Positions 1-64,000 of a stretch of DNA of 64,000 nucleotides are shown here, piece by piece. A program made the position numbers and the translations under genes. How positions within the stretch are numbered: position 1 is the stretch's first letter; the number at the start of each line of letters is the position of its first letter. Below the pieces are notes generated by a model. It was not told the origin of the DNA, did not search any database, and saw nothing but the letters and a program-made list of their open reading frames with translations. The DNA is from Bilabrum cf. latius (lineage: Eukaryota): NCBI GenBank assembly GCA_965178125.1, contig OZ237749.1, positions 682,001-746,000 of the forward strand. Direction: 5' to 3'.

Positions 1-3000
1 AGTCACTGGAACGATATGAGGTAAGAACAAAGATTGCCTTCGTCTCTCCTAAACGGAGTCGAACGGCCCCACGCCTTGGATATGACTTCTCACCGTGTTT
101 GGGGTCGCCGATACTGCATCGCCCATTTCGCAGGGAGAGACAGAGGCACCTGTCCACGAGGTATCCTCTCCATGCAGCTGAATATTACAGTTTCAAGGCA
201 GCTCACCTGTCAAAGCACAGGAAGCGCCGGCTGGACAGAGAGAAGACACGCAAACTGCTGCAGGGCCGTCGAGAGCAGCTGGTGTCTTAGCTGCCTTGCT
301 CTGCCTTGCGGCACCCCAATAGCGCCCTTAGAATTACTATTGATGTTATTTTGGTCATTCTGACTCTATACAGTGGTGAGATAGCCATGTGCGATTTCCA
401 CTGGCATGCCCCGATGGAGTAGCTGTTTAGCTTGTACCGCACGCTGCTGTTTAGTTTCAGTTGCCTTCCGACGCAGTCATGATGGTGCCTTATCAACTTG
501 GCTTTGGCCTTGAGCCGCAGCCATGGGATTTTCTGTTCGTGCTAGAGGTCCTTATCGACATTACTTTCGGAGCCGATCTGACGCTGCAATTCTTCTCGTG
601 GCGTGTCGCTCCCGTGTCTGGAGACACGCTCCTTGACTGCGGTTCGAACGCGAAGAACTATTTATGTTCTTGGTTCATTCTTGACCTATTGTCCACGGTT
701 CCATTCGACAGGCTTGTGCTAGGCACGAGTGGCAGCACGGCGTTGCGAACGTTTCGGATTCTGCGTATAGTACGCCTCCTGAAGCTGCTAAAGCTTACCC
801 GGCTCCTTAAGCTGCAGGACCGTGCGAAGCGGTTGGCCCGGATTGTAGGCGTCGGCCTGTACAATTCTGTCGGTGGGGTGTTCCAGCTCCTGTTTCTCAT
901 TGGGTTTGCCACCCACATCATCGCTTGTCTTTTCCATGGGCTTACGCTCTTCACATTGTTCGGAGAGGTACCGGAGAGGGTGCTTCTCGAGGGAATTGCG
1001 GATGAGCCGGACCCCGATGCGCCAATGCCGGGTCTTTTCCGGGTCGGTGTGGACGGGTCCTCATCGGTGCTGAATGGCGGGGAGAGCTGGGCCACTCTGT
1101 ACGGGGAGACGAACGCAACGGACGCGCAGAGGTACGCGTCTGCCGTGTATTACACGGTAACTTCCCTGCTTAGCGTCGGCCCCGGCGACATTGTGTCGCA
1201 GAACGACACGGAGCGCTTCTTCTCTGTCATTCTGATGGTGCTGGGAGCCTGCCTGTTCGGCATCGTAGTGGCTGGAGTGAGCAAGGTGGTGGAGCAGATG
1301 TCCGCGTCGAGCCTCGCGTACCAGCGCAAAATGAACGAGGTGAACGAGTGGTCGAGCAGCAGGAAGCTGCCCACTCGCCTGCGCCAGCGGATCGGGCGCT
1401 TCTACCGGTACCTGCTGTCTCGCGTGAGCCTATTCTCCGAGGCTAGCATCTTGCAGGACCTGAGCACGTCGCTGAGAAATGAAGTGGTGGCGTGGTCCAA
1501 CGGAAAAATCGTGTACGCGATGGAGCCGTTCAGCGACGCGGACCCCACTCTGGTGACCCTGCTGGTCACCAGGATGCGGCCTTTGTTCCACATGCGGCAG
1601 GACGTGGTGTTTCGAGAGGAGGAGCAGGGCAGAGACGTGTTTTTTCTGGTGAGAGGGGCCGTGCAGCTGGTGGCTGCAGACCCTGGTGAAGCACCGCTGC
1701 AGTACTTGAGGAAGCAGGCGAGGAGGAAGAGGAGGGACGAGCTGCTGGACGTGCTCGGTTTCTTCAACTAGCGGGTGCACGGGTCTGCGGGCAAGCGAGA
1801 GGTCGAGGTGGCCGGGGCTGGGGGGACCGTGCGTGGTCGCGCCTCCGACAGATAGCTGCAGCTTCAGAACGGCGACAGAGCTGGCTCTAGCAGACCATTC
1901 GCGTTCGCGTCAGCTAGCAACTCGGAGTTCAGTGGCGACATCAGCGGCTCCATCCTCGACATCCAGCAGGCTCTCCTCGAGCGGGCACCGAAAAAGGCAA
2001 GGAGCGCCCGACGAGCCACCCAGCGCAGGTCAAGAAAGAACCGACGCTCCTCTTCTACGCCCAAGAGCGCGTATCAGTCCTCCATGCCGTCCGACCAGTC
2101 CCACATGGGCACGTCTGCCACTCTCGGCACGGTGGACCCGAAGCACATACCTCGGGTGGAGCAGGAAGCGTCCGACTCGGACAGTGGTTCTCAGAAGAGC
2201 GGATGGACTGGCTACTCATTCCTCACTGACAGGCCTGGGAAGGGCAACGAGAAATCCAAGTCTCCACTGCTGGACAAATCGGAGAGGAACAGGAGGGCAG
2301 CCAACGAGGCGGCGCGCAGGCGCCGGCTATCGATGCTTCGGGACGCGCATCACAACGGAGTGGGGGGCGATTCGAGCGGTGGAGCAGGCAGCAAGGACAA
2401 TGACCAGCTGCTCCCCTAGACCGTGGATACCGTCAGGTCCTTCGGTGGCGCCAAGTCTATCCCAGCACCGGACGATCGTGACAGGGACAGAGACTCTGGT
2501 CCCGATGTTGTTGGCCAAGACGTGTCAGCTCCCGAGATGAAGTCTGCAGAGAGCAAAGGAGACGACGCAAGCGCAGGTGAGCACGAGAATGGTGCTGATG
2601 ACAGCAACTCGCGCGAAAATGCTCCCAAGATTGACAGGGAAGCGAACGTTCCTGCAGGCCAAGAACCAGACCAAGCACGCGGCATCGACATTAGCAAGGG
2701 AGGGACGCACGGACCCACGATGGAGGGAATAGCATCCATGGGCATGCGACGCAAAAGCGGACACGCTAGCGACAAGCAGGACCTGTGGACGGCCGGTGTG
2801 TCAGTGGGGCTCCGCTCCAGCAACCGACAGGCCTTGGACAGGCTCAAGGACTCGAGGCAATTCCAGATCATTGCTGGCATGCAGCAGACGCATGCCATCG
2901 GGTAGGCGTCCGCACGGGCCGAGGCCACTGCCGCCTTCCTGCGCCGCAAGGCAATGCAGGAGGCCAGGTATGGCACGCAGCTCGGGAGCGACAGCAGGCC

Positions 3001-6000
3001 GCCGTACTCGCCCCAACAGCATCGGAAACAGAGTCGAACGCCTGGCAATCCCGGCCGTGGCTCTCGCCCTGGCAATTTCGGACAGGGACGTGCTGCGAAA
3101 GAGGCTTCCGCTGCATCCACCTTGAGTGGAAGCATCGACATGCAACAGATCGCGCTGGGCCGCACCTAGTCGTGGACCGAGGCAGCGCAGCAGATGCGGC
3201 AGAAGGCCTCCATGCTGCGCATGGACTACGCCCGCAGCGCGCAGGGAATTCACACAATCCTGAGCAACGATGGGGGCAGGTTACCTGATGATCTTGACAG
3301 AGACGAAGACTTGAGGTACAGGAAGCAGCGGGGGCGGGACACATCGAATCGTGCGGGTGTGTCCGCAGCTCTTGGCATGGTACAGGAGGAGGACACGGAG
3401 GACGAGGCCCAGGACCATGAGCAGGACCAGTCCGCCAACGAGCATGAATCCAGCAAACCGAGTAGCCGGGACAAGCAGCAACAGCAGCAGCGTGAGCATG
3501 AGAACGATGAAGCACCATCCGGCAGTCCAAGGCGCACCGTCACCGAAGCTGGCTCTTCCGGAGACTCGAGCGCGTACCCGGTCGATATAGGTGGCGAGTC
3601 AATTGGAGACCCCAAGCTTGGCCTGCACACGATACCCCGTCCAATGGGAATGAAGGGGTATGGGAAAGTGGCTCAGACGCTTGATGTAGCTGACTCTAGC
3701 CATGGGGAGCAGGACGGTGGCGATGAGGAAGAAGGGGACGTCCGAGCTCTCCTCGCGGCGGGATCCAACCAAGCCACCAACCATACCAACGGGTCTACGG
3801 AAGGTGGCGCTTCTCTTGTTGGGCTCAGCGGCAAACAAATCCTTGCACCGCGCACATCCGGCTCGGGTGGGCAAGTTCGACACGGTGCACTTCAGCGCAA
3901 GCCCTCATGGCACAAGCAATAGTCTCCAGGTCAGCGCTCCGGGGGCTCGAGGCAGGGAAGCCGTCGCATCATCCAAAAACGCAACTCGGACAAGCTCACT
4001 CCAAAGATGTCTTTCAAGCTGTTTGGGAGCGTGATGGCGAGGCCACACGTGCCGACAATGGGTGGCGCAATGCAGCGGCTGCAGCGCGGCTCATTCCATG
4101 CCGCTCAGGCCATGGATCTGCCAGACGATGGCATTGACAGCATTGACAGCTCTGACACAGGAGAGCTCGGCATAGTGGTAAGTGCTGGCCAGCGCACGCA
4201 CCCGGCCCCAAGGCCTGTCGAGCCCGTGCCGCCTGGGTAGGTGCAGTCTCCAGGTGCCTCCGACAAGCGTCGAGTCGTTGGGTCCGCTGGCGCGCCGGAA
4301 GCGAGACCGCGCCCATCTGGGCCAGACGTAGACCAGGGCAGCGATGAATCGGTTCGCATTATTGCTGTGGCCTCAGATGGGTCGGGAGGACAAGGAGATG
4401 GTGTGCAAATTTCTGGTACCGGTCTGAACATCGACTCTGTCGGTGGCGCGAATCCTACCGGCAGCACGGCTCTCGATGAACTTATCCAAGATAGCAGGGA
4501 AGCGCAAATCGTTCCATCTAGTCAGAGCAGTGGCGTCAGCGGAGGTTCGCCTGCCAAGAAGAAGAAAGACAGGTAGTGGGGGAAGCAAGGCAGTGGCAGG
4601 CTGATCGGGGCCCCAGCCGGGAACTCCCTTATGGACGCACCGTCGTCGCATGAGGAATCCGGCAACGTGCCACGAGTCGGAGCAGACTCGTATGCATCTC
4701 TGGCCGATGCAGATGCGCACATTGCTTTGCCATCGGAAGCTGACATGGTAGCAGAGCCAATGAGCTTGGCTGAGGCACGGCAGGTCCTGGCCGCTCAGGC
4801 TGGCAAAGCAGGCAAGGGCTTCAACCGCGCCAGCAGCATGGAGCGGATCATCACCAGCGGGGGTGACAGCAGAAAGCAAGCTCCTAGTCTTCCAGGTAAA
4901 ATTCCGCAGCCTTAGCTGCTGCAGCCCAGTCCGTCATACGGCGGGTCTGTGCACCGTATGAGCCTTTCGAACATGAACCCGCAGAGGTCGTTCACCGCAC
5001 AACGGAGGTACTCCGCGGTTTCAAGTGGGATTGAGAGCAACGAAAGCATGAAAGAGAAGGAGGCAATGCTCCTCCTTGGCGACTCTTCCAGCTCAGATGA
5101 ATCCACTGGTGAGTTGCTTCAGCACAGGCTCCGCAGGGCCAGTTCAGGTGCTTCGTCGCTTGTGCAGGAGCTTCTCGTGCCGGAGGTAGAAACTGAGGAG
5201 GAGAAACAAAGGAGGTTGCAGCTGCTTCAATACAAACGTGACTAGGCCAGGCGCAAGCGAGAGAAGCAGAAGCGCTCGAATCAATCCAACAAGTCTGTCA
5301 GCCCCGGCAGCCGGCATAGCGGAGGAGCCGAAGCTGGCCGATCTGCCGGATGGAAAGCACTTTCTGCAAGCGCGGAAGTCGAAAACGTTCCGTAGCGAGG
5401 ACCGCCGACGCGTCGAAGGAGCAGCAATCGACCGATGACGTTTGCAGAGGCAAAGAGGATGCGAGAGTTCGAGAAGACAGACTCTGGGTTGAGTGGCGGG
5501 AGCCGCCCCGGTCGCAACATGATGAGCATGTCAAGCCGCAGGCTCATCAACTCGAGGGACGCAGAGGTGCGACGAGCGTGGAAACTGGGTCCTCTGTATG
5601 CCATGGCTGTCCTCACCGATGGGCGGCACTTCGGTGACGTGGCTCCGCTCCTCGGATGCACGAGGCCGCTGGGTGCGCGGGCATCCACTGTGTGCGACAT
5701 GCAGACAATCACGATAGAAGAGCTTCTCATGGTGCTGCAGGACTTCCCCACCAAGCTTCGTGAGTTGCGTAAGCTTGCAAAACAGCGGCGCAACGCCTAC
5801 CGCAGATCGCGGATCTTGCTGGCTGCTCAGCTGCACGTTGGCGCTGCCTCGAGGCACGAAGAGAACGGCAAGCGAGATGCCGAGCGCGAGGTAAAGCGAG
5901 CGGTAGAACAGGGCAAAATCAAGCCTGCGAGTGCCAAACACTTGGCTCTTTTTCAACAGTTTGTACCTGAATTGCATGGCAGCAGCGGCAGCCTCTCTTC

Positions 6001-9000
6001 CAAGCGTGGGAGTCGAAGCAGTGGTTCCGTCTCGAAGCCTACAGGGTAGAGGGGCGGCACACTTGGTGATTCTACCAGCATCAATGCGCCAGGGCCTCCT
6101 GGAAAATTGCCGAAGCCCATGCAAGTGTAGTCTGGCACGGCACAATAGAAAGCAGAGAGTTAGGGCGAGCACAAGGGTGCGCCGTCAGGACAGCGCGGCT
6201 CCGGTCGCAACAGTACCAGCGATGACCGTAAGCGTCCGCTCAAGTCCGCGTTGAAATCTGGTTCCAGGCGGCAGGTTCCTCCTCGGGCAGAGGAGCATAA
6301 TAGTGACGATGAAACGCTACCTCCATCGCAGCGACCCAAGCGTGGTAGGCACGCTGAGAATGACAACGGTGGAGGTATTCAGCCCCAGCAGAGCTGGGCC
6401 AAGCGCGGTTATGAAACCATCTCAAAGAGCGCCAAGACGATTGGAGCCGTGATGTCGCAGGGTGTCAATCTGCTCACGTCGACGATCAGGGACGAAGATG
6501 ACCTGGATGTGGACGAGCACGACGACTCGCCTGCTGCTGTGGCGAAACGAGCCGCGATCGAGAGCGTTGCCCCCGCGCCCCGTGCCGTCTTACCCCTCAT
6601 TTTGCTGAACGATGCGCCTGCCAGTGTGCGGCTGCTTCCGGAGGGTCTACTTCCTACTCCAGAAGAAGAGGAAGACGATGAAAAGCTGCTGCTGAGGACA
6701 CTGCGACAGGTCGAGGTGGACTCAGGTCACATGGAGTCCATCGGAGCCGGATGCTGTGCCGGTTGCTTGGCATGGTACGTGAACTTTTGCGGGTGCGAGT
6801 TTCGATTCTCGGGGCGGTGTTGGTGCCCCTCTTGGTGCACGTGGCTGATCATGGCACTGCAGTGCGCCTGCTGCGGCCGCAGCGTCGGGTCAGTCTCACC
6901 TGGTGATGCTGGTGTGATGAGCGGAGGATTTGCAGCCGCTAATGCATCCAGATCAGCCGCCAGCGAGCGTGATCGCTAGCGGTGTTCCTGCTGCGCTAGC
7001 TGCATCACATGCGCGCGTGCGTCTGAGGCGGACGAGCGCGCGGCGCTCATGGAAGAGAAGTCAGCGGCTGCTTCGGGTCAGGATGGAGCGGCTCAGGCTG
7101 GACCGCTCGGCTCCGTGTTCAGCCCCACTGCCTCCAGCACCATTCAGGTGCCCAAGCACTTGGTGCAGAGAGAGGCTGTTAGCGTGGACGATCAGCCAGG
7201 TAGTGACGTGCATGGCTCCTCAGGCAACCAGAAGAGTGTCGTGGCGGCAGCCCCAGGTAGCAGCAGCCCACATGATCCATCCATCCCCTCGAAAGGCAAG
7301 AAGAAATTAAGGGTAAGACGAGGTTCAACTTTCACTGCTGCGGATGGCACCAAGTTTTCGGCTTCCATGAGGAAAGTGGGTTTCGATCCCGATGCAGCGG
7401 AGGAGTTCGAGGACGAGCAGATCATGCACGGCAAGAACGTCCACGGGCACAGAGGCGGAGATAGTGGCTTTTGGGACGAGGCGCTGAAGTGGTTGTGCTG
7501 CAGACTCGATGCGAAGTGCTGCTGCCTCGATGAGGGCAGCAGCTGCTGCCAGGACCCTCTTGATCCGTCGGGCGGTGGCATGGGCACTGGCCCTGGCAGG
7601 TCGAGGAGCCGCAGGCGGAAACGCAAAGCAGATTCGGATGCAAATCGGCACCTTTGCTACTATACCTGCGGCACGCAACTGATTGAGCTGGCATCTGGAC
7701 CCATTGTAGAGGATGTGGAGACCCCAGCAGCCCTCTCCTCTCGCTGGATTATCTGGAGGGATTCATCGGCTAAGGCGCGATGGGACCTTCTCGTGCTCGC
7801 TACAGTGCTCTTCACTATGTTTCAGGTGCCGTTTTTCATCGGATTTGATCTTGATGTCGATGTGGGCAGCGGCATGTACATAGTGGAGCGAGTCATCGAC
7901 GCGATGTTCATCCTGGACATTTTCCTGAGCGCCCGCACGACGTACGTGGACGACGAGACGCAGCTACAGGTCACGGTTCCATCTCTCATGTGCTGGCAGT
8001 ACTCCAAGAGTCGCATATGGGTTGACCTGCTGAGCAGCGTACCATGGGACCTCTTCATCCCCTTGCTGGTGAGTGGGGATGCCGACGCCAACGCACTACG
8101 ATCCATCAAGCTGCTCAGGACTCTAAGGCTCGTTCGATTGCTGCGCCTGCTGCGTCTGCTGCGTCTTTTCAAGGTATCTTCATACGTGAAGGGTCTATCT
8201 GTAAGCATGTTCATGTCCCCGGGGGTGGTGCGCTTGATGACTCTGTCATTCCAGGTGCTGTTCAGCGCTCACATACTTGGCTGCTTGTGGCACTTTGTCA
8301 CGATTGTTGACGCCGATCAGACTCACTCGTGGCTCGAAAACATTGATCCAGCCCTCAGTGTTGGATCAGGGCTCGGCAGCAAGTACCTAGCGTCAATATA
8401 CTGGGCTGTTAGCACGCTCACAACCGTAGGATACGGTGATATTGTGCCGCACACTGACAGCGAGACTGTGGCAGCCATCTTCATCACGGTGATCGGAGCT
8501 TCGATGTTTGGGTACATCATTGGCTCAATCGCTGCTGTACTGACTCGGCTGGATCCATCTCGGTCTCTGAGTGAAGACAAAATGAGACAGGTGGACGAGT
8601 ACCTGAGGGACAAGAACCTCGACCCTGCCCTTGCAGCTCGGGTGATCAGCTACTACGACAAGCTTATGAAGCGCAAGAGTGCTTTCAACGAGGATGCCAT
8701 CCTGGCTGAATTGAGTGGTTCGCTCCGACGGGCGGTCGTACTGCATTTGAACCGAGACATCATCGGATCTATATCCTTCTTCCGAGGCGCATCGGAGGGT
8801 CTCATCTACCACGTCGTCAGCGTGCTGAGACCGCAGTTCGCTGCACCCGGCGAGTACGTATTTAGGGAGGGCGAGCAGCCGTTCGACATGTTCTTCTTGA
8901 CGGATGGCGTGTGCGAAGTGGTCGAAACTGTGGAGGCTGCACCGTCTAAACACGGCAGGAGGAGGAGGAGCAACCGCAAGTAGGGAAGTCGAAGGGCGGG

Positions 9001-9502
9001 ACCGTCTCGGCACAGCTCTTACAGCTCCGTGGGCAGCATGGCGCCCCCTTCACCGACTGCTCGGAAGCACAGGAGATATATTGGCAGCGGGAGCCAGAAC
9101 TTTGGTGGGATCATGTCGGCTGCAAGTCGTAAGTCACTTGGTGGCCGCTTTAACAGCGGTTTTGTGGCAGAGGGTAGCAGCATGGGTAGTGGGCCGCAAG
9201 GGAGGGGAGACTTCGGGGCGGACGCACACCCCGCGCACCTGGAGGTTGTGCACGAGCAGCTAGACCCAGGGTCCTACTTTGGTGAGCTTTCGCTCCTGCT
9301 CGGAATCCGGCAGCCCGTCGGTGTGAGGGCCAAGACTCACTGCTCCCTCTTTGCGCTTTCCCGGGAGGAGCTCAAGGACCTCGTCGATCGCTTCCCGCTG
9401 TTCGGAAAGAGGGTTGAGCAGAGTATGAGAAGATTTCTGCGGTCGGTCGTGCGGGACCGAAGGCGACGACGCAAACTTGAGGAGGGTGGGCAAAGCGATT
9501 GA
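1..9502 (+). CDS. Two-repeat (2 x 6TM) cyclic-nucleotide-binding-domain K+ channel-like protein, 5'-partial, >3,130 aa; intron 376-476; needs TAG read as sense
   Basis: The frame is open from the window start. Splicing 376-476 (GTGAG...ACGCAG) restores S1 'HPNSALRITIDVILVILTLYSVMMVPYQLGF'. Track ORFs 461, 2084, 2423, 2954, 3194, 4007, 4241, 4631, 4949, 5435, 6251, 7049 and 9029 share one frame and are separated only by TAG (18 in total). The first TGA is at 9500-9502. There are two S4 R/K-x-x ladders, pores SVGPGD and TVGYGD, C-linkers, and CNBD motifs VFREEEQGRDVFFL...HFGD and VFREGEQPFDMFFL...YFGELSLL. Confidence 0.92.
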
Positions 9503-9768: not shown

Positions 9769-12700
9769 TCAGACAGCAGTAGCGTTAGCGCCGTCTGGAC
9801 CCTTCGCGGGCTGTGCCCCCTGCTGCTGCTGCTTGCCAGTCGTGGTCTGACCAGTCCGTTCAGCAGAGGCCGGGTTGCCGTGCTGCACCGGCTTGCCCGT
9901 CGCCCCGCTCGTCTGCACACCACTGCCGATGCGAGCTGGGGGAGAGCAGCAGCACGGGCACGGCAAGAACACGTGCCACAGCCACTGCAAGCACGACATC
10001 GGCGCCTCTCCGAACAGCTCCCGGTGCGAGTTCGTCGCGTTCGCCATCGCGTACACCAGCATCAGGAAGAAGATGCACACGGACACCAGCGCGAACACCA
10101 GGCCCACATTGTGCCGCACCGTGTCGCTGGTACCGTCCACGATGCGCGTGGTGACGATACGCCCGTTCACGCACTGCTTGCCGCTGGGGATGCCCTGGCC
10201 CTGCCTGTCTGAGCGGTCGTCGGCCGAGCTGATGGTGTAGTCGGGGTTGCACTCCTGGCAGATGCCCTGCAGACACACGCCCTGCCACAGAATGGCGCGG
10301 GCGTAGCCGTCGCGAGGCACCTGCGACTGCGATAGCATGTGTCCCCTGCCGGTGGAGTTCCAGAAGCGGGCATCGCCGCAGAAGCCGTCGTTGGGAGTGT
10401 ACCTGTTGTCACCGTCGCCGCCGATCCGCGGGATGTTGACCACCTGGGTCTGGCTCAGACGAGACGTCAGACCGTACACGTTCACGCCCTAGGTCCTGCA
10501 CAGCTTGCCGAAGAACTGCCAGCCCGCTCCCTCCTTGTTCTGGCACGTGCCGTACGTCCGGTGGGACCAGTTGTCGCACACGTACTCTCCCTGGTCGTTC
10601 TAGCAAATGCCCATGTCCGTCTGGCAGTACTGCCCGTCCTCGCACATGCCGTCGTTGGTGCACTCGAGGCATCGCGTGCGCGGCTGCACGCGCTGGCCCA
10701 TCCTGGAGTCGTACGACGGCACGTCAGCGCAGATGGTGAAGCGGTGCTCGTCGTTGTTGTCGCTGGCGTCCTTGCGGTCTTCCGAGGGATGGTCCTTGTT
10801 GCGCACACAGTCGTCGTTGTGGATGCACTCCCCTCGCACGCTCTCATGCGACGCACGCACGGACATCTGCATGTAGTTGGCGTCGCACGTGCTGCCTCGG
10901 GTGACCGTGATCATGTACGTGCCCACCTCGGACATGCCCGTGCGGGCCGTGGGACGGCCGAACGGCTGGGTCAAGGCGCTGCGTGAGCCAAGGCTGCCGA
11001 CACCCGAGATGGAGTCCGACTCCGAGTAGCTGTCAACGAGGGCGCCGTATCGAGAGTGCGTGCCGGGGAAGGGCTGCACCTGTGTGGAGCCGTCATCCTG
11101 GAAAGGACGCACGTTCGTGCTCCGGTCCACGGATCGGAAGCGCACCTGCATGGCGTTGCGAGGAGGATGCTTGACGAAGTTCATGCCTCGGCCTGCGCCC
11201 AGCTGCACGTTGTCCACGATCACGGACAGGTTGTTGAAGAGGTCCCGCTCGTAGTGCACGAAGAAGATGGCCTCCCTGTCCGGGAACTCCCCGTTGTGGA
11301 TCTCTCGCTCGTCGATGGTGACGTTGTTGATGGGCTCGGACTCTCCAAACTCGCCGTCCTCGCGGAAGTCGTACAGCACAGGGTAGTGCTCCAGGCCCGT
11401 GATGGTGACGGTGAAGTCGATGAACACTCCCAGCGCGTACGGGTACTGTCCGTCGCTGCTTGGGAAGGCCACATCCTCGTCCTCGAACACCTCTCCGCCG
11501 GGCACCTGCACCTCCACACAGGCAGGGTACTGCGTGCCGGCTGAGTCATCGGCACCGCCGTCGTACTCCACGCGAGGCAGACGGAACCGAATCCGGCCCG
11601 CGGCATCGTAGTGGTACTTGGCCTCTTGGTCCTCCAGCGACGTGTACGTCTGCGAGCTCGTGGCAGGCTCATACCCGGGGATGCGCACCTGCCAGAAATC
11701 GCTGATCTCGTCGTTCTCGATGGCAGTCACATTGGGCAGAGGCATCACGCTGGGATCCGCCTCGATGGTGATCTCGATGGTCTTGGGGGGCAGGCCCATG
11801 GACGCGAAGTCTTCTCCGATGGGCACGCACACGGCCTGGCCTGGCCTCGTGTATCCGTTGATGGCCACGGTCTTGTTGGCCGTGAGGCGTGGCACGGAGT
11901 CCAGATAGATCTCGCCGTTGTCCTCACTGTTCACGTTGTACCCGATGCTACCCTCGCCGTACAGCTCGCTGTAACCGCCCTGATACGTGCCGTTGCGCGT
12001 GACCATGCGGGCGGCCAAGTGCCACTCGAAGCCGTCGTCGTCGAGACGCGCCACGTTGCGCATGTCGAAGACGATCTGGTACGTGCCCACACACCAGGAA
12101 TTGAGCTGCGATGGGAGGCCAAGACATGGGGCAAGCAGGCAGCATGGAGCTGAGGCGCGGCAAAGGGGATGGGGGCGGGGAGACTGAGGCTGGGTTGGCA
12201 GACACATCGCAGCATTCTGCAGGTGTGCCGTCTCACCTGCTTGGCGTGGCTGTGGATCGGAAGCTGCAGCACATCGTTGCCGTCTTCCTGATACGCCCGC
12301 ACCTCGACCGAGTTCGCTCCGAAGAAGTTGTTGAAGTCCTCCTCCTGAGAGGGCACAGCGTCGATGTCGCTGTAGTCCGTGGAGGGCGGCAGCACGAAGA
12401 ACTCGTCGATGGCATCCGTGGCAGATGGATTCCAATAGTCGGTTTGTCCGTTTGCGTTGAACAGGATGATCTGCAGCTGGGCGCTGTCTTGGTACGGGAG
12501 AAGATCGTTGTTGAGCGTGATGCTGAGGACGGATGAGTTCTCTCCTGCATCGCTGATTCCGCGCGCACACGTGAAGTTGGATGGGCCATAGGAAGGGAGG
12601 AGATCAGCGGCGGAGAGCTCAATGGATGAAACCTCTTCGCAATCGCTCCTAGTGAGGCCTGCGAAGGATGGGTAGCTGACCACTTGTCGAGCAGTGCGAG

Positions 12701-12938
12701 TACACTCGAAGAGCTCTACGATACGTTCTTCAGCTCTTTGTGTATAGAAGTATGCTATTATGTGGGAGTAGCTGCAATGGTTAAATGCCCAGCAATACTC
12801 CGTAAGGAGAGCATGCAGTTGGGGTAGCATGCATGCGACTGCTCATGCGGCTCTTCCTTTTCGGAGCGCTTCACCGCCGGTCTCACTTGCATTCGCAGCC
12901 CCAGCCAGCATAGCAACTAGTACCTGCAGTATCTTCAT
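9769..12938 (-). CDS. Uncharacterised type I membrane glycoprotein, copy A (about 936 aa); exons 12938-12887, 12658-12237, 12105-9769
   Basis: Signal peptide MKILQVLVAMLAGAANA; two GTGAG...TCGCAG introns with matching phases; acidic ectodomain with N-x-S/T sites; Cys-rich membrane-proximal region; TM helix VGLVFALVSVCIFFLMLVYAMA; cytosolic Cys cluster PCPCCCS. In-frame TAG at 10600-10602 and 10489-10491; ends in TGA. Confidence 0.8.
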
Positions 12939-15900: not shown

Positions 15901-16292
15901 CCTCCTGATACGCCCGCACCTCGACCGAGTTCGCTCCGAAGAAGTTGTTGAAGTCCTCCTCCTGAGAGGGCACAGCGTCGATGTCGCTGTAGTCCGTGGA
16001 GGGCGGCAGCACGAAGAACTCGTCGATGGCATCCGTGGCAGATGGATTCCAATAGTCGGTTTGTCCGTTTGCGTTGAACAGGATGATCTGCAGCTGGGCG
16101 CTGTCTTGGTACGGGAGAAGATCGTTGTTGAGCGTGATGCTGAGGACGGACGAGTTCTCTCCTGCATCGCTGATTCCGCGCGCACACGTGAAGTTGGATG
16201 GGCCATAGGAAGGGAGGAGATCAGCGGCGGAGAGCTCAATTGCGTTGGTCTCCGTGCAATCGCTCCTAGTGAGGCCTGCGAAGGATGGGTAG
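9881..16292. repeat. Direct tandem duplication: about 9881-12675 versus about 13498-16292 (period 3,617 bp)
   Basis: Line-by-line comparison shows only about 10 substitutions over the central ~2.75 kb, including intron 2. The flanks (C-terminal tail, most of intron 1, exon 1) are clearly diverged. Confidence 0.97.
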
Positions 16293-16540
16293 TTGACAAG
16301 TGTGTGACCGTTACTTGTCTTCGCAGTGAACAGGCGTTTTTTACCACGATTGGTGCAAGTATAAAACGATTTTTAAAAGTCGTTGTCGATTGTGTAATTT
16401 CTAGGTGTGTATACGTTTTGTTACCCTAGTTCTAGGCGAGTATGTACGCCACCAAGTTTGACGAACAAGCGTGTACATTATTGCTCACTTGCGGATGCAA
16501 TGCTGCTGATGCTGCCCAGCAGTACTACAAGAGGTATCAT
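13371..16540 (-). CDS. Uncharacterised type I membrane glycoprotein, copy B (about 941 aa); exons 16540-16489, 16275-15854, 15722-13371
   Basis: Paralog of 9769-12938 at an offset of 3,617 bp. It has the same 52-nt first coding exon length with a different signal peptide (MIPLVVLLGSISSIASA), the same intron positions and the same two in-frame TAG codons; ends in TGA. Confidence 0.8.
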
Positions 16541-43379: not shown

Positions 43380-43460
43380 TAGATAACATATTGTAGCTTA
43401 ATTGAAGTCCGTGACCAAAGCCTATTCAGTCAGTAGACCCGACAACCACCTGCGACCAAC

Positions 43461-53800: not shown

Positions 53801-56800
53801 AGGCGAGCCTAAGGTGATAGGGAAGCTCCGTCACCACATCCTGACGCTATAGGACTGCAACTGCAGTGGCAGCAGGCGGTTCTGATGCAAATGTCCTGCG
53901 CATGCGCTCTGACAAAGATTGTATAAGGCGGTGTTGCGGTGCCGTGCGGCGCGCCAGCACAGCAAAGAGCGACTACTCCGGTACCGCCGGCGTCGGAGAT
54001 AGTGCAGCGAGACTGCTGCCGGACGGCAGACTTGAGTACCACGATACCATGTCAAGAAGCAGTGCCGATGCTTTCAAATTGATTTCCTGCGACCAGGAGC
54101 TACCACTCTTCCTTGCAGAGGATGCAATTCCGAGCAGAAGATCTGCAACTCCCATGCTGCCTTGCTGAGCCACCCGAAAGGAGAGCTCCGAAGCTGCTGC
54201 AGATAGTGCCTCGTCAAGGTTAGCAGGGGCGCGAGATGATACAGACCTCATCGATTTGCCTTCTCCTGCAAGAGTGCTAAGCTATTTGTCCTAGAGTCCG
54301 TGGAGGATGCGGTATGAATGCACCCAATCAACGGGTACTTGCCGGTTCTGTGGTACCTCTTCGAGTTTGCGAGCTCGTCCGCCAGTTGCAGACCCTAGCC
54401 TGGCTGCATTAATCGGCAGTACCGCGGCCAAGCTCATTAACCTATCGCGCCGTGGGATGCCACGCAAGCGATCTGCCGCTGACTCGTTCGTGGCCGCCTG
54501 CCACAACTGTTCAGATTGCTTTAGCCTACCACTCTACACACCTCCCATGCCAGCTTGATGCGCAGCTTTGCCAGGTGGGTCGTCAACGTACTGCCTTGCC
54601 ATGCTACTTTCGGATTTTACGTCATTTACGCTGCTGGCTTCAGACGCAGGTATGCCAAGCGCATGAACACCTCCTGCTGCTCCTTGTTCAGGCACTGATG
54701 CTTCTTGCTGCACACCTCCGAGGCGCGGTGACTGCACCGATACAGCTGCAGATTCCTTGGCTCCGCCTGGAGAATTGTTCGGATCATCAACGCGATCGAT
54801 ACCAAAAAACTGCGCCGACGTCGATGCATCCGCGGCGCTAGCAGTGCGACGATGAGAACCCCTTACGCTTGGGACCGTAGGGTGCACGACGTGCCTGCTG
54901 GCCACGCCTGCCCCCGACTACTAGCGCTAATTGTGGAACGAGCTGGTTGGCTAAAGAGGTGGTTCTCTCGCGCGAAGAGAAGAATTTGAAGAGCGATTCG
55001 GACCTAGTGATGGTTGGTGTACGTTGGCCGAGTCCACATCGGCTTGCTCCACATCCACGCTGGTGTCCAGGCACGCGGCCACCGAGGCGTAGCACGTAAC
55101 TGCTGCTGCCTTATTCTGATGTGGACCTCCTTGCAGTCGACCAATATGCGTGATAAGGAGCTGCTGTAACAGCGCCTGTACCGGCGGTGGGTTGGCCGAG
55201 GTAGCTGCATCCACTTCTTCCCTGGCTGTAGCAGCACCCTGAATGGCAGCCGTGATCTACGAATGCAGGGACTGCAGGAGGGTAACAGCGCGAAAGTTGC
55301 GCGTTCCAGGCTGTCCTTGCTTTGACTTCCTCCACAAGTACGCTAGGATTGACAGCGAGGCTGCTGCAGTGTCCACCCTGCTCTGCTGTCGGTGAGATGG
55401 GGCCGCATTTGTAGGCAGCTCATCAAGGTGCAGCGACAGAAGCGGCATAAGAACGTGCTACACAGCAAGACCGAGCTTTTCAAAGCTGGCAGAACGCACC
55501 CCGTGCTACCTTTTGGTCCACAATCCGTTTTCAATTGCTGTCTGAATGATATCGGATAACCGTGATCGGATCGCCTGCCACTCCGCGAGCTGGATCATCT
55601 CTGTTGCGTCATGATCTTCGGCCCGCCTATCGTTAAGGGGGGCTGAAGCTGGGTGAGCGTGATTTCTATCGTCACCAGCATCGCTGGCACTGTCAGGGTC
55701 GAGCATGGAAGCTCGCCCATGCTGCAGCCCGCTGGATGCGCTGCTTGCTACGGAAAATCCACTGACTGTGCTAGACACACGCGGAAGCTGTTGAATACCA
55801 GACTGCCCAGAAAATAATCTGTCGGCTTCAATTGCTGCCGGAATGCTAGGAACCCCATGTGATCCGTGCGTCTGTGCCTACTAGCTGGCCGAAATAGCAG
55901 GAGTACGAGATACCCGCGCCGACAGTGATGCAATCTTGTACGAAATGTTGGAAATTGCGCTTATGCAGTGCTTGACTGCGCCAGCCTCGATGAAATCTAC
56001 CGCGCTGGAGGCATTCTATCTAACAAAACCCCAGATCAGGTCGACTGCCTTGGCTGCAGTGCTTGGCAGTCCCTTGCACCAGATGGACGCATCGAGCAAT
56101 ACGGATCTGAGGAGAGTAGCCCGAAGCATACGCCACCACACTCTCTCTGAGTATGCAGCAGTCGTCAGGTGGCTGCCGTACTTGCCAAGAACGCCCATAC
56201 TCAAGTCCCACATGGCTTCTGCAGCGCTTGGAGAGAGAAGGGCGGAGCTCATACTGCGCACAAGATGCACTACCAGGCCCGGGCCACCGAAATGGGCCAA
56301 CCTATTTCTGTCTGCACAGCTACCAGGGTGGCTTAAGAAACCCTGCAGCAGCCTGATCGTGTCTGCTACGGGATCAAGCTACGTGACGCCGGCCAAACCG
56401 TCTCCGAATGAAACAACGCCTGCTGCAACTCGCGGACATGTCACTGGAGCTATGGCCAGCTGCGTTGAGCTGCCACTCAATAATGCATCGTCGTTCGTAG
56501 CAGCTGCAGAGCCTACACCACACACAACATGACGAGCATGAGCTGTTGCTTGGTCTCTTGAGAGGCCCCTCTTGAGCCCCTCTTGGCGGACTGTCTCGAA
56601 GTGGATGGACAGCTGACCGAGCAAGGGTACAATGACTTCGATGCCGCCGCTTGATTGCACTACGTCTCGCGCCGGCTGCCATGACACGGAGTAAGCGCCA
56701 CTGATTCCGAGTAAATGAACCCCAAGCAGAGAGGGAGGCCTTGCCATTTCCTGCTCCGATGGCTTCAACAACCCGAGGCTTGACGGTCTCGCCCCCACGT

Positions 56801-59800
56801 ACACCTCTCCGATTATGGCACCAGCCCGGGCCTCAAAGGTGGACACGGAGGACGACGACGTATTCAAAAACAGGGGGCTTTCGTGCACTGCAGGCGAGAA
56901 CACAAACATGATGTCCTCAGTGAAACCGCCACGAAGCAAAGCCAGCGATGCGCTCGTCATTCTACCCAGTCGACTCAGCTGCTCCCGCTACAGCTTGGCG
57001 CTGGCCGCCGTCTCAAGGCGCATGCCAGAAGCTTGTCGCGCGCCACCTCCTGTGAGAATATCGATTGCTTCGTCGACCTTAGAGCCACCTTCCTCCTCGC
57101 CAAAGCTGCCTTCACCGTAGCTCCCTCGACCGAAGCTGCCAGCCCTCGACCCGTCGAAGCTGTGCTTGTCCCCGTGTAATAAAGTGATTTCGTCTTGGTC
57201 GGAGTCGACCGGGAATACTATCGGTGGGATCAAAGACCTACTGGGGCCCCGTACGTCAGTTTCCGGCGGCAGCAGCATGGACCCATATTCGGGCCCAAGC
57301 GCAAATAGGCCTAGCACTTGATTCTAGTCTAGGCACCGGCGCAAAAGCATGATTGGCCCAAGACGCCCCGTCAGGTCTACAACGGCCTAAGACTTCAGAA
57401 TTCGTTCCGCAACTGCAGTGTCAGGGCTGGCCAACCTAAGGTTTGTGTTGATTCCGCCCCCAAACAGGACCTGCACCCCGGCTTGCGGCAGAGGAGGGCC
57501 TCCTTCGAGCCCATCCCCTGGCTGAATACCAAGAGAGCCTAGAGACTCTTGACCAGATTGGCCACCTAATACAACAGTGCTACGATGGGGCACCTAAGGC
57601 TGAAAATTAGGTAGTCTCATGGCTCCGGCAACAGCTGGTGACCCATCCACATATATGGTGGTCAGTCCGTCTCCACCGAACATTGTGCTGGGGCCTTGGA
57701 CGATTGTAACGTGATGCCATCTGCCAGGCTGAATGACGGGGAATTCAGTGGCCACTGACTACGGCTCTCTGCTGCGGGAATGGTGCTTGGCCGTCAAGCG
57801 CAGTGCGAGGCCTGCCCGTGGTCCAGCACTCGTGATCTCGGCCTGCAGGGTCAAGCTGCGGCCCTGCCCATCCCACATGCGCACCAAGTACGGGATGTCC
57901 CTAGACGAGAATACGAGCTCTGGAGCAGTCTCCTGTGAGTCTCCGATAGTATTCGACCTCTGCCTTGGTTCCTGCTGCTACGCATGTCGGTCGACACCTC
58001 GTGCGCCACCACGCCCAGCCCCGGATGCTGGCCCAGGTGTAGTACCAATCTGAGTGGAGTCTTCACGTGTAAAATTCGATGGCATCGTCATTCCCAAGAC
58101 CTTCGATAGCTCCGAGACGTGCTGCGATCCGCCTGCCCGCTTCGTCCCAGTGCCCGGATGATCCGGATTCACTACGCTGCCAGTCGGGGCGTGTGCCGGA
58201 AAAACGCACACCCACATGGAAAGGGTGTAACCCTCACTCACCGGCCAGTATGGCAAACCGTACGTAGCCTGGCGTCCCGACGAATCTGGCCCCTAGATGC
58301 GACGCTTCTCCTCCAGTGGTCGGCGATGCTGCGAGCCACGCTGAGACTAGCTATCAGTCTACATCTCACCGCCATCTCCCACGTAGAATGCGGCAGAAGC
58401 AGGGCTATGCGTGCTGTGGAACCGTCCACTGTCATCGTGTCGGCGGGAGTTAGGCTCACCCATTAGCCTCTCTCCATCGACTTGTTCCCTCTGCTGAATA
58501 ATCCTCTCAAGCAAAATCCTGCTCCTAGTAGACAGATGGTACTTGACAGCACTCACCGCACGAAGTCCGGCTCCTCGCTTGCCAAATACGAAGTAGGACC
58601 GGGGCGCAAGATGCATGCCGTATTCGGACACTGTTGAGCCGGTGCCCACCATGCCTTCCTAATCTAGCTCTGAAACGCTGGATCGCACCATTGCGACCGC
58701 TCCGGTCCTCGTCCTGACAGTCTGCATAGCAGGCAACAGATTCGGGCGCGGAAGCCTCGTCTCATTTCTTGACACCATGACCATCCGCCGCAGAGTCCCA
58801 ACGATTCCCCACGCACGGTTAGGCATCGTAGCCGGGCTTTGCCTGAGCATAGAAATCAGTAGTTTGAGCTGCCGAGCCGATAAAGACAAGCTGGTCAGCA
58901 TCGACACCTCGTACAAACTCGCCCTCTGGATCGCTGAATCGACAGAGGTGTCCAAATACCTCGCGATAGAATCCATGGGATGGGGAACCGCTGCTGCGAG
59001 CCTCACACGGTTCTTGAATGAGTGCGGACCTGAAATACACTTGGCCACTGTGAGTAGAAGCCATGCCTACACCATGGGATTCGACAGGCAGGCCGCTTGC
59101 ACCACGTGCATGATCCGAGAGGCGTCATGAACTGCGCCCTAGGGCGGCATCGGAAGATGCAACGCGTGGCTATTCTCCGGTAAGAGTCCATGGCCTGCCG
59201 CATCCACGGCGTCCCACCAAGACGGCTGCACAGACGCATCAAACGCTACACCGGTGGCTGCTTGCATCAACAAAAGTGCTTGCCCAAATCCAAGTCGCTA
59301 GGGAATCGCCCTTCCGAATGCAACTGACAAACTTGCCGCCTCGTACTCGTTGGCAAGCTGAACTAGCTCAAGACTTCCAGATAAACCCTAAAAACGGCTG
59401 GGTGCTCGTCTGTCTCCAGACCTAGACGATACGGCTTCTCTAACACGATCCTGCAGCCACCCATGCTTCAGCGCGGTCAGCATCGTATCTCGGATCACCT
59501 GAGCAGGTGTCGGCAAGCTGTGTCGTAGAGAGTCAAAGGGTGGCAAAGCTGGCCTGCTGGGAGAGCCAGCCGACTCTGCACCTGTACTTTGTTTACCGCT
59601 TTCATCGATCCAGCTGTTCGCCAGGCTGGCACCTCGCGCCCTGAATTTGTGCACGTCTGCCAGCACTGCGGCTATGGCGTTGCTATTTTCTAGAATATTC
59701 GTCGAGACATCACGAAGCGCTTTACCCGTAGCAGAGTCCATCCATTGCCTGGGCATTTTTTGCAAGGATTGCTTGACAGGTTTCAGACGCCACAACGGGA

Positions 59801-62800
59801 CTCCATCCTGACCTCTAGCTTGATACTGTGCAATTGGAAACGCTTCAATTGCTTGTCCTGCTTGTCCAGCGCCCGACATACTTACTTGCTGAGACCTTGG
59901 GGCTCTTGCAAGCCTTGTCAAACGCAACAACTTCTCAAAACTCGCTGGCTCAGCCGCCCCAAACATGCCCAGCATTGCGATGTCCTGCGGCTAGCAAAGG
60001 GTAGTCGCGGCAGACGCTGCAACAAAGTCGAGTCCGGCCGTGCCCTCAGCAAACCTCGCGGCTAGCAGCGAGCCCTCATGGTACGGTGCCCTAGAGTGCC
60101 CGAGGAAATCAACGTAAGCATTAAAATTGCGGCTGTATTGTGCCTCCTTGGCCCCTGTATCCACTTCAAGCCAGTGCTGAAGCGACCGCTGACTGGCGGA
60201 CACCGGTGCATGCACCAGACAAGGGCATGCGCATAGTTCTGACACATAGCTGGCCACACCATGCAGGGCACGCAGATCGGGATCCTGAGCATGCAGTTCG
60301 CGCAAATTATTGCCACTACTCGAGTCGCCGTCCTCGTCTGGCGGTATGGCAGCAAGCTTAATGCGCTCGATGGCCGGGCCTTGCTGACGCTGAGGTGTTG
60401 CTCCATGCATCGAAGAATGGCTACTATGCCCCCCTGTCGACGACCCAACTACCACCTGTTGCGAGACCACGGTAGTACACAGACGCTCCACCATTCGAAG
60501 AATCCTGACAAAGGCTCGTGAGTTTCGCGCCGCTTGCAGATGGGCTGCTCGCAGTCGGGCCACAGTCTTGCCAACTCGCATACCATCTGCTTTGGATCGA
60601 CTCGACTCAATTGCGCCCTTTGGTTCGCCCGAGGACTTCCCTGCAATATCCAAATTTTCTTCGGCGTTCCTGGTATCTAAATCCACGACTGCGTCCCTGC
60701 CCAGCTCCGCAGCAGTACTCGTCCCCGCCCTGCACATCTTCAGGTGTCTCTCCGCCATCTTGACCGACTCGATTAAGAAGCTCTCTGACGGTGATGTGTC
60801 CCGTACAAGTGCCTCTAGGCGGCCTGCCGGCGCCGTGGCCAGCAGCGGGAGCTTTACATGCAGGTCGTCGGTCCAACGGGGGATTGAGTGGAGCGCGCGT
60901 TCAGCAGCGGACTGAATGTTGGATTCGATACACCCGTCGCTACCACCGCTGAGCTGCAGTTGATTACGCCTCGCTAAAAACGCTGACAGCGGTAACGCGG
61001 AGGCACAGAACATCCGCACGCGAACAGGGGATTGCCAAGTTGATACCTCGGGGCGCGGCCGCTGCGGAGGCAGCTGACCAGCACCAGATGGCGCTAGCAG
61101 AGTTCTTGGCGGCATCATCTCGCGTTGGATTGGCCTAGTGCCTCCCGCTCTCATCGATTTCCTTGGAGACACTCGGTGTGCGGCACTATGAACGATACCC
61201 CTATGTCTCTACTGAGGAGAGGAGGGGTGTCTCTCCGCAATACCATGCTAAACATCGTCATCTTCTTCGTCCAGCTCTGGAACCCCCAGCTGAGCTAAGT
61301 GGTCACCAAATGAAGAAGTGCGACTGCCTGCCGATACCATGCGCCCGTTTCGAAGTCCAGAAATGTCCATGTTGCTAGCGCCGCTGCTTGCCCTTGATCT
61401 GGACCGCGGCCGCCGCAAGAACGACCGGCCCCGAATGGGATCTAGTGCTTCCACCAGGGGCATCCGCACAGGTTTGCACTACGATGGCCCCTGAAACGAA
61501 AATGATCCCTTGCCTGTATACCTACTCACTCTAATGGCTGTCGCTTGCAGTTTATGTAGCAGACACAAGGAAGCGTCCCCGAACTCATCGTGAGTGGCGA
61601 GTTCGACAAGCATTCGAGACAGGCGCGAATCGCGCACCGGAAAGAACCCAATGATGCCAGTCCTCGCCAGACCAGCAGGCGTTGGCAGAGCCTTTTGCTC
61701 TAGATACCACATCACTTTGCGTGCTACGTCCTGCAGCACGGCTCTCAGGCCTGCAGGCATCTCAGGGTCGCCACGAGAGCCCTGTTGCTCGGCACTGTCA
61801 AGACGTTGCGCCTGTATTCGGTAGTGTTGCTACTATAGCACAATGGTACGGTCAAGGTCACCACCTGACCCAGGTCGACCAAGCCACCTGGAAAGCAGCA
61901 GCAAGCATCCACCAAGTGCAGGCCACAGCAAATCTCGCCTCACGATAGCAAGCGACCCGTCGATAAACACGGAGCGAGCGCTTCCAGACGTGTTGATTGA
62001 GTCGGCGTATGGACTGCCTGTGGAGGCATGGGAGGCCAAGGAGCCACTCGAATCGCCTCGATTCGGGAAAGTTGCTGCCAGTGGTGAAGAAACCAAGTCA
62101 CCAGAGCCCGAGCTTGACGTGGTGGGGGCAGGCGAACGGATATAAAACGGTACAGCGCTGGCAGCCGGCGGTTCAGAAGAACCAGCAAGGCTTCCGCTGT
62201 CCTGCATTGGCCTCTATGCTATCAACTCATCGATACCAGTGCACGTTCCCAGCTCTCGCAGCACTGGCCAGGCATGCTAGTACGCTGAATACACGGGCAG
62301 CGCATTCCAGTCATCCATGGATGCATGTTCCACGCCAGAACCAGTTGAAGCAAGGGATGATTCGCCGCATGCAAAGCGCGTCGAGCCACTGTGCACAATA
62401 CCTGCGAACTCAGATGGGCCTATTCGATCGGCAAACGACATGTCTAGGAACGGGAACTCAAGCAATGAATGCAATCTGCCCAGCTAGCTGTCGCTTGGAC
62501 GCGCCGGGCAGAGCGCCAATTGTCTCAAATTCGTTCGCAGGCATCCGATGTCTCGCATGCTCTCGCGAGACCTTCCCTTCATGAGCGAATCTTCGTGGTA
62601 ACTGTTGATTTGGAAAGCAAACTCGCGCTGTCTGCCTACTAGCGTTGTGAGGATCTGGACGGCGTCGCAGTCGCGCAGGCCAGCGGAGGCTAGTTCAGGC
62701 TCTAGTAGCAGCTACCGATGCAGACTATTGGAGGTGGCACACAGAGACAAGTCGTCATCGAGGCTCAGAAACATCGAGTCCAGAAGAGTTCTAGTCAGGA

Positions 62801-64000
62801 CTACTAGAGCGCGCCGGACAGCTGCTTCTGCCTAAACCTGTCTATGACGATCTCCCACGTCAGCGCCCGCGCTCTCATGCCGCGCGCCCTGTATTTCGGC
62901 TCGTAAATTTGACCTGCAGGCAAGCAAGCTCACAAAGTGCTCGTCGTGGACGCGGCTAATTGCCTCTGGTGCCAAGCAAACACATGTTGCCAGAGCCCGT
63001 ACCGCGTACTACTAGGCTGGTTCGCCAACACTGGAAGCGTCAATGTTCGCGACGTACTTACTCCAATCCGCTTGACATGGAATCACCGCAGGTAGTTGTT
63101 GACGGATGTTCTCAGGCGACTGCCGCACGGCGTGACCAGCCTCTACCAAACTGAGCAAACGTCCAGTAGCAAACTGCTGGGGGCCATCTAGCTGCTATGA
63201 TGCACCTTGCATGCTCTTGGCCTCGACAATAGATACTATTCTGTGCCTCCACACCATGTTGGGTCGATCGGCAGTATCAACTGCGGCGCTTTCGGTCGGA
63301 TCCAACGGAGGCTGCCTGGCGGCTGGACGCAGCGGGCTCGCCGAACCGGAAAGGGACGAAGCAGCGCCCGGTCCGAAGCTGCTTGCCGGTGGCACAGCCA
63401 TTCCCTCTAGGAAAGACGCCGGGATGGACGACGGTCCAGGCGCTTGCGAAGACAACGGCCTTGCTGATGATGAGGATTGCCTGTAGAACTAGGCAGTCCC
63501 TCCCTGCAGCAATGACATGGCCAGCGCTGCACGAATCTAGGCTATAGCGAGCATGCCTGGCACCAAGCAATCGTTTGCAACGAGCTGCATCTGCCAAGCG
63601 GGTACTTCACAAACGCGTCGCAGTGCAGTGATTGACAACCGAACAGCTGCTATGTCTGCCAGGCATGTCACAGGATTGACGGCAGGCCCATCGTTCGGGT
63701 TGAGCTGCGCACTTGCCAGGTTGGCCTATCGCACGAGCTGCAAGGAGCCTTGATCGAGAAGAGACGCCACTCCGAGCACCACTGCAGAAGTGACCACTAG
63801 GTCCCGTCGCTTTGAATCGATGCGCTCATCTAGCTGCATGCCTGCTTGGATCATGCCGACGCATGCTGCAAGCCAAGCATCAGGGCCTGGTAAAAACCAC
63901 ATTGCTCGATGCAGTTCGTGTTCACAAGCATCCAATAGACCGGGAGGCTCGCCTATTTCATGCGATATAACGCCAAGCTCCGCATGCCAGTGGCGGTCGA
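44865..64000 (-). CDS. Giant BEACH-domain protein (neurobeachin/LRBA/NBEAL-type order: ConA-like, PH, BEACH, WD40), 5'-partial, >6,370 aa, intronless in this window
   Basis: I walked every gap between track ORFs: one frame from 64000 to the TGA at 44865, interrupted only by TAG (about 70). ConA-like GYTLSMWV...IQPGRWHHVTIV...IYVDG (~57600-58250); PH [53 protein letters not shown]...YGTHY...DKPDRMF...RELTPEFY...DVELPPWA...[20 protein letters not shown]...GQTP; WD40 TGSSDGTVRVW and LSGHEDTITCV. Confidence 0.93.

Follow-up and report, generated by a model that had tools for sequence, protein, structure and literature searches.

UAG as a probable glutamine codon, separate from UAA, in a 64-kb genomic window of Bilabrum cf. 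latius

Introduction

Is UAG an amino acid codon in the genes of contig OZ237749.1 (GenBank assembly GCA_965178125.1, Bilabrum cf. latius), and, if so, does UAA share its meaning? The question is raised by 64,000 nucleotides of this contig (positions 682,001 to 746,000 of the forward strand), hereafter termed the window and numbered from its first letter, in which long protein-coding frames on both strands are punctuated by TAG. A first reading made from the letters alone (the sequence-only reading) had proposed that UAG is a nuclear glutamine codon there. The analysis reported here leads to the conclusion that, very probably, UAG is an ordinary glutamine (Gln, Q) codon, UGA ends all of the genes seen, and UAA is neither a sense codon nor, in the window, a terminator.

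Results

TAG is the only stop triplet found inside the genes

The window has a guanine plus cytosine (G+C) content of 59% overall and of 54-64% across 4-kb bins. Under the standard code its longest stop-to-stop frame is 667 codons, while reading TAG as sense extends the maximum to 6,377 codons (44865-63998, minus strand, with 71 TAG), in a frame that continues past the window edge. The second-longest frame obtained in this way spans 3,040 codons (380-9502) and contains 19 TAG. Reading TAA as sense, by comparison, leaves the maximum unchanged at 667 codons. Frames of 6,377 and 3,040 codons require that TAG be a sense codon.

Fourteen genes, comprising 15 coding sequence (CDS) segments, were curated, with identities taken mostly from Pfam matches and with ferredoxin and ribosomal protein S13 (RPS13) added from the listing of open reading frames (ORFs). 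The 18,198 sense codons of this set include 154 TAG, 606 CAG and 200 CAA, together with no TAA and no internal TGA, and TAG makes up ~16% (154/960) of the Gln codons. Every gene of the set except RPS13 carries in-frame TAG (13 of 14). The sequence-only reading had counted TAG in 15 of 17 genes, about 150 times in some 18,700 codons, and had described the spliced frames as free of TAA and TGA; the recount bears out both statements, as it does the individual TAG sites named at 18689-18691 (plus strand), 21400-21402 (plus strand) and 17746-17748 (minus strand), and the occurrence of in-frame TAG is confirmed. Two points had to be corrected: the TAG-rich plus-strand frames at the two tandem genes are shadow frames, the genes themselves being minus-strand (9769-12842 and 13371-16372), and one TGA, at 43377-43379, stands in frame between two ORFs. 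When read in its other two frames, the CDS set contains 54 and 65 TAA and 282 and 361 TGA, an abundance that places the clean reading frames far outside chance. The G+C content at third codon positions (GC3) of the genome is 0.67.

The last 5,000 residues of the giant BEACH-WD40 protein, which the longest frame encodes, served as the query in a scan of metagenome contigs, and one locus, termed L001, was returned. This locus of 10,907 bp has a G+C content of 57% and is 42% identical to the window protein over 3,759 alignment columns. Its frame of 3,635 codons runs uninterrupted across 10.9 kb and contains 34 TAG, no TAA and no TGA. The use of UAG as a sense codon is a trait common to the window organism and L001, and is old enough to link relatives at this distance.

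UAA is not used as a glutamine codon, and the genes end in TGA

The ratio of CAA to CAG is 200:606 in the window and 61:96 in L001, from which ~51 and ~22 TAA codons, respectively, would be expected. In-frame TAA was found at none of the 18,198 codons of the window and at none of the 3,635 codons of L001. Set against those expectations, this absence indicates that UAA is not a working Gln codon, and the earlier proposal that UAG had been uncoupled from UAA is upheld, given that CAA is common in both sequences.

A code of the table 6 type, in which UAA and UAG both encode glutamine, UGA is the sole stop and UAA is merely rare because of the high G+C content, predicts the TGA ends seen in all 14 genes, and UAR = Gln is described in the text of two reports as a much commoner reassignment (PMC5304391, PMC11687900). 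In addition to the missing TAA, however, A-ending codons of twofold families are common (CAA 25%, GAA 30%, AAA 24%), and the TAA present in the off-frames shows that the trinucleotide itself is not rare. The defining feature of that table, UAA as Gln alongside UAG, was absent from the window and from L001, and such a code is very unlikely here.

The terminator is TGA in 14/14 genes, and TAA stands at 0/14 gene ends; at a GC3 of 0.67, these 14 ends are too few to rule out a rare TAA stop. The code had previously been matched to NCBI table 15. Three of the four testable features of that table were found, namely UAG as Gln, UAA absent from sense positions and UGA as a stop, whereas the fourth, UAA as a terminator, was seen at no gene end. 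The feature that marks ambiguous stop/sense codes, all three stops in frame, was likewise absent, only TAG being in frame.

It could be that UAG is ambiguous, being read as glutamine inside genes and as a terminator at some ends according to context. Ends called from ORFs are unable to show a TAG stop, and some TAGs lie near the final TGA (9 codons before it in the Sm gene, 21 and 32 before it in Gcd10). Note, however, that where the C terminus is conserved, in RPS13 and in ferredoxin when compared with the public protein P0002, the frame closes directly at TGA. Moreover, neither TGA nor TAA occurs in frame, in contrast to the situation in Condylostoma, Blastocrithidia and Amoebophrya sp. Kv as set out in the text of PMC12005148. 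Context-dependent termination at UAG is judged highly improbable.

The residue encoded by TAG is glutamine

The meaning of TAG was explored by aligning the window BEACH-WD40 protein with L001 and collecting the informative columns, in which TAG in one sequence faces an ordinary residue in the other (n = 62). Q was found opposite TAG in 15 of the 62 columns (24%), compared with a Q background of 4.4%, and in one extra column TAG faces TAG. The remaining columns hold S (8), A (7), R (6), G (4) and residues with smaller counts, at approximately their background frequencies; L faces TAG in 2 of the 62, and Leu was outside the six best-fitting residues listed. Log-likelihoods, calculated with substitution frequencies taken from the window-L001 alignment itself, were -160.9 for Q, -180.7 for K, -187.0 for N and -193.2 for E. 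Where the flanks are ≥50% identical, Q occupies 10 of 20 TAG sites, and the corresponding control for CAG/CAA codons gave 0.57. One of the L001 TAGs falls on the first position of QYPV.PW, a BEACH motif, where human neurobeachin and LRBA likewise have Q.

Homologs of the glycoside hydrolase family 59 (GH59) protein provided a further column. Among 150 listed homologs, 33 cover the N-terminal motif in which the window reads IGGDA-TAG-STDG, and the residues opposite this TAG are Q in 15, D in 7, N in 5, L in 3, F in 2 and E in 1. The homolog motifs closest to that of the window read IGGDAQSTDG. In the same gene, P0162, a public fragment of 107 residues of which 105 are identical, has Q at TAG 21400, subject to whichever code its gene caller applied. 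Together with the L001 alignment, these two comparisons sustain the original assignment of TAG to Gln. The polyglutamine (polyQ) tract at 23146-23211 (minus strand), which had been offered as an argument on account of its alternating CAG and TAG, does have that structure: CAG six times, TAG CAG five times, CAG, CCT CTG and TAG TAG CAG. More generally, Q is enriched to a similar degree within two residues of TAG (0.064-0.089) and within two residues of another Q (0.066-0.075), the value for any other residue being at most 0.05.

Of the five single-site arguments that had been advanced, two proved weak when taken alone, an example being the ferredoxin TAG column, in which 15 homologs carry D (11), E (3) and Q (1). 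The codon comparison between the two tandem genes could not inform the meaning of TAG, the copies being 99.2% identical and too similar for this purpose. Alignments with Protein Data Bank (PDB) structures for BEACH, leukotriene-A4 hydrolase (LTA4H) and the kinase, with TAG masked as X, placed the TAGs in variable or unaligned positions and indicated no residue, and a search for Gcd10 homologs gave a single weak match among 8,000 scored candidates.

Assignment of UAG to some other residue (Glu, Lys, Leu, Tyr, Trp or pyrrolysine) could appeal to the predominance of Asp and Glu in the ferredoxin column, and UAG = Leu and UAG = Glu are both recorded in other protists in the text of earlier reports (PMC5304391, PMC10553269). 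On the 62 sites, however, the log-likelihood deficit is ~20 for Lys and ~32 for Glu, and the share of Q at TAG matches that at real Gln codons. The GH59 column, with Q 15 against L 3 and E 1, and the polyQ tract are also contrary to it, and a residue other than glutamine is hardly tenable.

TAG is retained in spliced RNA

Contigs of four public runs were compared with positions 17001-37000 of the window (20 kb); X5 and X8 are runs of two other studies, and X1 is a DNA run, apparently of the source DNA itself. Eleven GT..AG introns were skipped by contigs of X5 and X8 (10 in both and 1 in X5 only), and none by contigs of X1. The absence of introns from the X5 contigs identifies them as complementary DNA, despite an automatic 'probably DNA' label. 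Introns are 84-329 nt long and the genome is intron-poor. Once spliced, the GH59 and V-ATPase subunit H genes, with four introns each, form a single frame in which the terminal TGA is the only stop.

The sole base difference listed in the 20 kb is at position 34676, outside any TAG. At least eight TAG codons (18689, 21400, 26053, 26086, 27718, 27892, 31767 and 33659) fall within RNA pieces or joints with zero differences, and among those kept in RNA is the TAG of the 24-nt GH59 micro-exon. The retention of TAG in spliced RNA contigs rules out editing and assembly error. RNA had been suggested as a check on the sequence-only reading, and its outcome was clear: UAG is kept in spliced RNA contigs and is not replaced by CAG at these sites. 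The proposition that the in-frame TAGs are artefacts (assembly errors, pseudogenes, or C-to-U differences that editing reverses in the RNA) can be dismissed as next to impossible, because RNA contigs of two other studies and the DNA run match the window base for base, the frames are interrupted by TAG alone and never by TAA or TGA, and the metagenome contig L001 independently displays the same pattern.

Low-complexity repeats (Gly/Lys-coding, Gly/Met-coding and CAG-type) occur at 26109-26146, 29853-29906, 22898-22938 and 23153-23227. In every run, many contigs match these repeats in part or end loosely there, which accounts for most of the matches at 90-95%.

Affinity of the organism

A quick maximum-likelihood tree of LTA4H was prepared from the window sequence and 34 of 120 listed homologs, picked by name and rank and including no fornicate row. 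The window sequence and P0038, a public protein 95% identical to it, share a long branch. This branch lies within a clade of nine rows, comprising a Symbiodinium sequence and environmental rows, with a Shimodaira-Hasegawa-like approximate likelihood ratio test (SH-aLRT) value of 99, and the clade is separate from green algae, fungi, Dictyostelium and animals. The best solved relatives of the window kinase are calmodulin-domain (calcium-dependent) protein kinases, in PDB entries from Cryptosporidium and Toxoplasma. There is a weak lean towards an alveolate affinity, read from a single gene tree in which the branch is long and the named assembly may be contaminated.

Comparison of RPS13 with PDB ribosomes gave no placement, the top-scoring entries, presumably plant and fungal, leading by a few bits. 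A 15-nt segment of the spliced-leader motif of dinoflagellates matched twice at 3 mismatches, where chance alone predicts 1.9 matches, and a Protein Atlas search with part of LTA4H returned family-level matches only and no useful taxon. Further public relatives are the GH59 fragment P0159 (80% identical) and the ferredoxin P0002 (50% identical), from which it follows that relatives at several distances exist.

Two named candidates were rejected. Amoeboaphelidium is excluded by its G+C content (40.5% and 39.9%, against bins of 54-64% here) and by the absence of sense TAA from the window, and Amoebophrya sp. Kv is excluded as AT-rich with three stops in frame.

Gene content of the window

The features of the window are collected in Table 1.

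Table 1. Genes identified in the 64-kb window, with in-frame TAG codons, gene ends and introns.
Feature	Position	Strand	In-frame TAG	End	Introns and remarks
Tandem cyclic-nucleotide-gated-type channel, two units	479..9502	+	17	TGA	3,008 codons
Tandem gene A, Cys-rich membrane protein	9769..12842	-	2	TGA	
Tandem gene B	13371..16372	-	same 2	TGA	99.2% identical to gene A over 2,805 bp
Adrenodoxin-type 2Fe-2S ferredoxin, last exon	17407..17936	-	2, including 17746-17748	TGA	Intron 17937-18097, upstream of last exon
GH59 galactocerebrosidase-like protein with C-terminal ricin-type lectin domain	18100..21723	+	18689-18691 (micro-exon), 21400-21402	TGA at 21721	RNA-supported introns 18587-18671, 18696-18790, 19053-19381, 19730-19895
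C2H2 zinc-finger gene	22441..25219	-	12, including polyQ tract	TGA	Intron 24903-25022
Gcd10/TRM6	25991..28066	-	5	TGA	At least 4 TAG in RNA contigs identical to DNA
Ribosomal protein S13 (uS15), main exon	28583..29035	+	0	TGA	
Sm/LSM protein, Gly/Met-rich tail	29373..30410	-	5	TGA	
V-ATPase subunit H	30450..33149	+	2	TGA at 33147	RNA-supported introns 30602-30698, 30826-30914, 31017-31100, 32759-32926
Protein kinase with C-terminal EF hands (CDPK-like)	33611..35389	+	1, at 33659	TGA	Upstream intron 33484-33609
Leukotriene-A4-hydrolase-type M1 peptidase, long acidic tail	35625..39473	-	6 (conserved core 0)	TGA	
Ser/Gln-rich coiled-coil ORFs	40110..44705	+	21 + 8	TGA of second ORF at 44703	
Giant BEACH-WD40 protein	44865..63998	-	71	TGA at 44865-44867	6,377 codons, 0 TAA; Pfam Beach E 3e-91

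In tandem gene A, the triplets TGC TAG AAC (a Cys-Gln-Asn motif) lie 24 codons upstream of a TGC CAG AAC copy. For genes A and B, which encode a C-terminal membrane segment, no Pfam family and no usable Protein Atlas match was found. The GH59 micro-exon of 24 nt (18672-18695) encodes the conserved IGGDxQST motif and is confirmed by spliced contigs of two runs. At 28415-28585 the RPS13 frame has no initial ATG, and its conserved N terminus follows directly after a likely acceptor site; the start codon is probably located in a tiny upstream exon. The RPS13 locus also has the top RNA contig depth in the compared 20 kb.

In the region 35625-37900 (minus strand), the LTA4H-type protein has a tail of ~550 residues that is absent from solved homologs and includes a long acidic run and a hydrophobic segment. 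Residues ~530-620 of the same protein form a hydrophobic, unaligned insert that resembles an intron retained in frame. The BEACH-WD40 gene exceeds 6,377 codons, its frame being unbroken over 19 kb and its 5' end lying outside the window.

An in-frame TGA at 43377-43379 divides a Ser/Gln-rich frame of 1,530 codons into two parts (40110-43379 and 43380-44705). An intron covering this TGA was sought, with the 11 RNA-supported introns as the splice-site standard: there are 63 frame-keeping GT..AG pairs, and neither donors of the form GTAAGT/GTGAGT nor GCAG acceptors occur among the 25 listed. The TGA may separate two genes ~80 nt apart, belong to a frame-changing intron, or be a read-through site.

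Discussion

The window shows a real UAG-to-Gln nuclear code, most likely that of a new lineage of a known but rare kind. Several observations weigh against this conclusion. Of the 62 columns drawn from the L001 alignment, 47 hold a residue other than Q, a share in keeping with 42% identity. One BEACH-domain TAG is opposite P in human neurobeachin/LRBA and V in L001, the first ferredoxin TAG stands in a column dominated by Asp, a second is opposite G in the closest homolog, and the kinase TAG is opposite E in the best PDB match, Cryptosporidium CDPK1; the ferredoxin, kinase and BEACH sites that are not Q are explained as variable positions. TAG is also sparse in strongly conserved cores, with none in that of LTA4H and none in RPS13, and the public fragment with Q at position 21400 carries the reservation about its gene caller given above. 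At the level of termination, the view that UAA is still a stop is without any observed gene end in TAA, and ORF ends alone cannot reveal TAG terminators in some genes. Finally, tRNA and Rfam scans of the 64-kb window returned no tRNA genes and no matches, and the mechanism of decoding is put forward by analogy.

By that analogy, UAG would be decoded by a tRNA-Gln with a CUA anticodon, as described for other lineages (Panek et al. 2017; McGowan et al. 2024). Such a tRNA would be unable to read UAA under wobble rules. The release factor eRF1 would no longer terminate at UAG, as in other UAG-reassigned eukaryotes.

Genomic DNA, introns and public RNA are all available for this organism, and the changes in tRNA and eRF1 should be readable from the full assembly. 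Two features go further than the described cases. First, the code extends to a relative whose 3,500-residue protein is only 42% identical, and it may thus be the property of an entire clade. Second, TGA is used exclusively at gene ends, unlike the preference for UAA in other lineages with UAG alone reassigned, and this touches on the ability of eRF1 to tell UAG from UAA, or its loss of both. A practical consequence is that gene callers using the standard code would shatter 13 of the 14 genes, and the changed code has to be applied when this genome or its environmental relatives are annotated.

One interpretation of these data goes further. It could be that the organism belongs to a deep undescribed lineage, possibly allied to alveolates and with environmental relatives, whose code is midway to UAR = Gln: UAG is Gln, UGA is the sole stop and UAA is unassigned, having neither a tRNA that reads it nor a role as a stop. 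This is doubtful at present; if true, a code with UAA unassigned would be the first natural intermediate of the kind required by stepwise models of stop-codon capture.

In its G+C content, intron size and 19-kb exon, the window appears unlike ciliate macronuclear DNA. As a GC-rich genome of non-ciliate appearance it adds a case of UAG-only change, one that is probably independent. In the text of the reports considered here, reassignment of UAG alone is rare in nuclei, being attributed to one fornicate, one rhizarian (as Leu) and a handful of ciliates. A full-text literature search that covered few subscription journals found no described GC-rich non-ciliate lineage with UAG = Gln, Iotanema left aside whatever its G+C content, and the code may already be familiar to those who submitted the assembly.

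Among lineages in which the codon or its meaning differs, Amoebophrya sp. Kv is described in the text consulted as AT-rich with all three stops in frame (PMC12005148). Rhizarian sp. exLh and three uncultivated phyllopharyngeans also have UAG alone reassigned, the meaning there being Leu and here Gln (PMC5304391, PMC11687900). The aphelid Amoeboaphelidium protococcarum resembles the present case as a non-ciliate, associated with algal cultures, in which TAG is Gln. According to the literature cited, however, both TAG and TAA are apparently Gln in this aphelid (PMC6299283), and G+C content is 40.5% in A. protococcarum and 39.9% in A. occidentale (PMC10608142, Table 1). The difference is thus that TAA is also reassigned there, that G+C content is ~40% as against 59%, and that the window LTA4H stands apart from the fungal and chytrid rows.

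Closer parallels are found where UAG alone is Gln. The phyllopharyngean ciliates Hartmannula sinica and Trochilia petrani, and Protocruzia tuzeti, are given this code in the text of McGowan et al. 2024 (PMC11687900). They share with the window the same codon and the same meaning, with UAA kept separate, and the authors propose that suppressor tRNAs bearing the anticodon CUA act in them. In the described lineages with UAG alone reassigned, UAA is the predominant or preferred stop according to the two accounts (PMC5304391, PMC11687900). The fornicate Iotanema spirale, in which UAG is Gln, UAA and UGA are stops and UAA predominates, as laid out in the text of Panek et al. 2017 (PMC5304391), was described there from transcripts, whereas the window is genomic DNA with 59% G+C and introns of 84-329 nt. 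Its main stop is UAA, whereas TGA stands at 14/14 ends here and TAA at none. What Iotanema and the window organism have in common is that, in a non-ciliate, UAG alone has passed to glutamine while UAA is not a sense codon.

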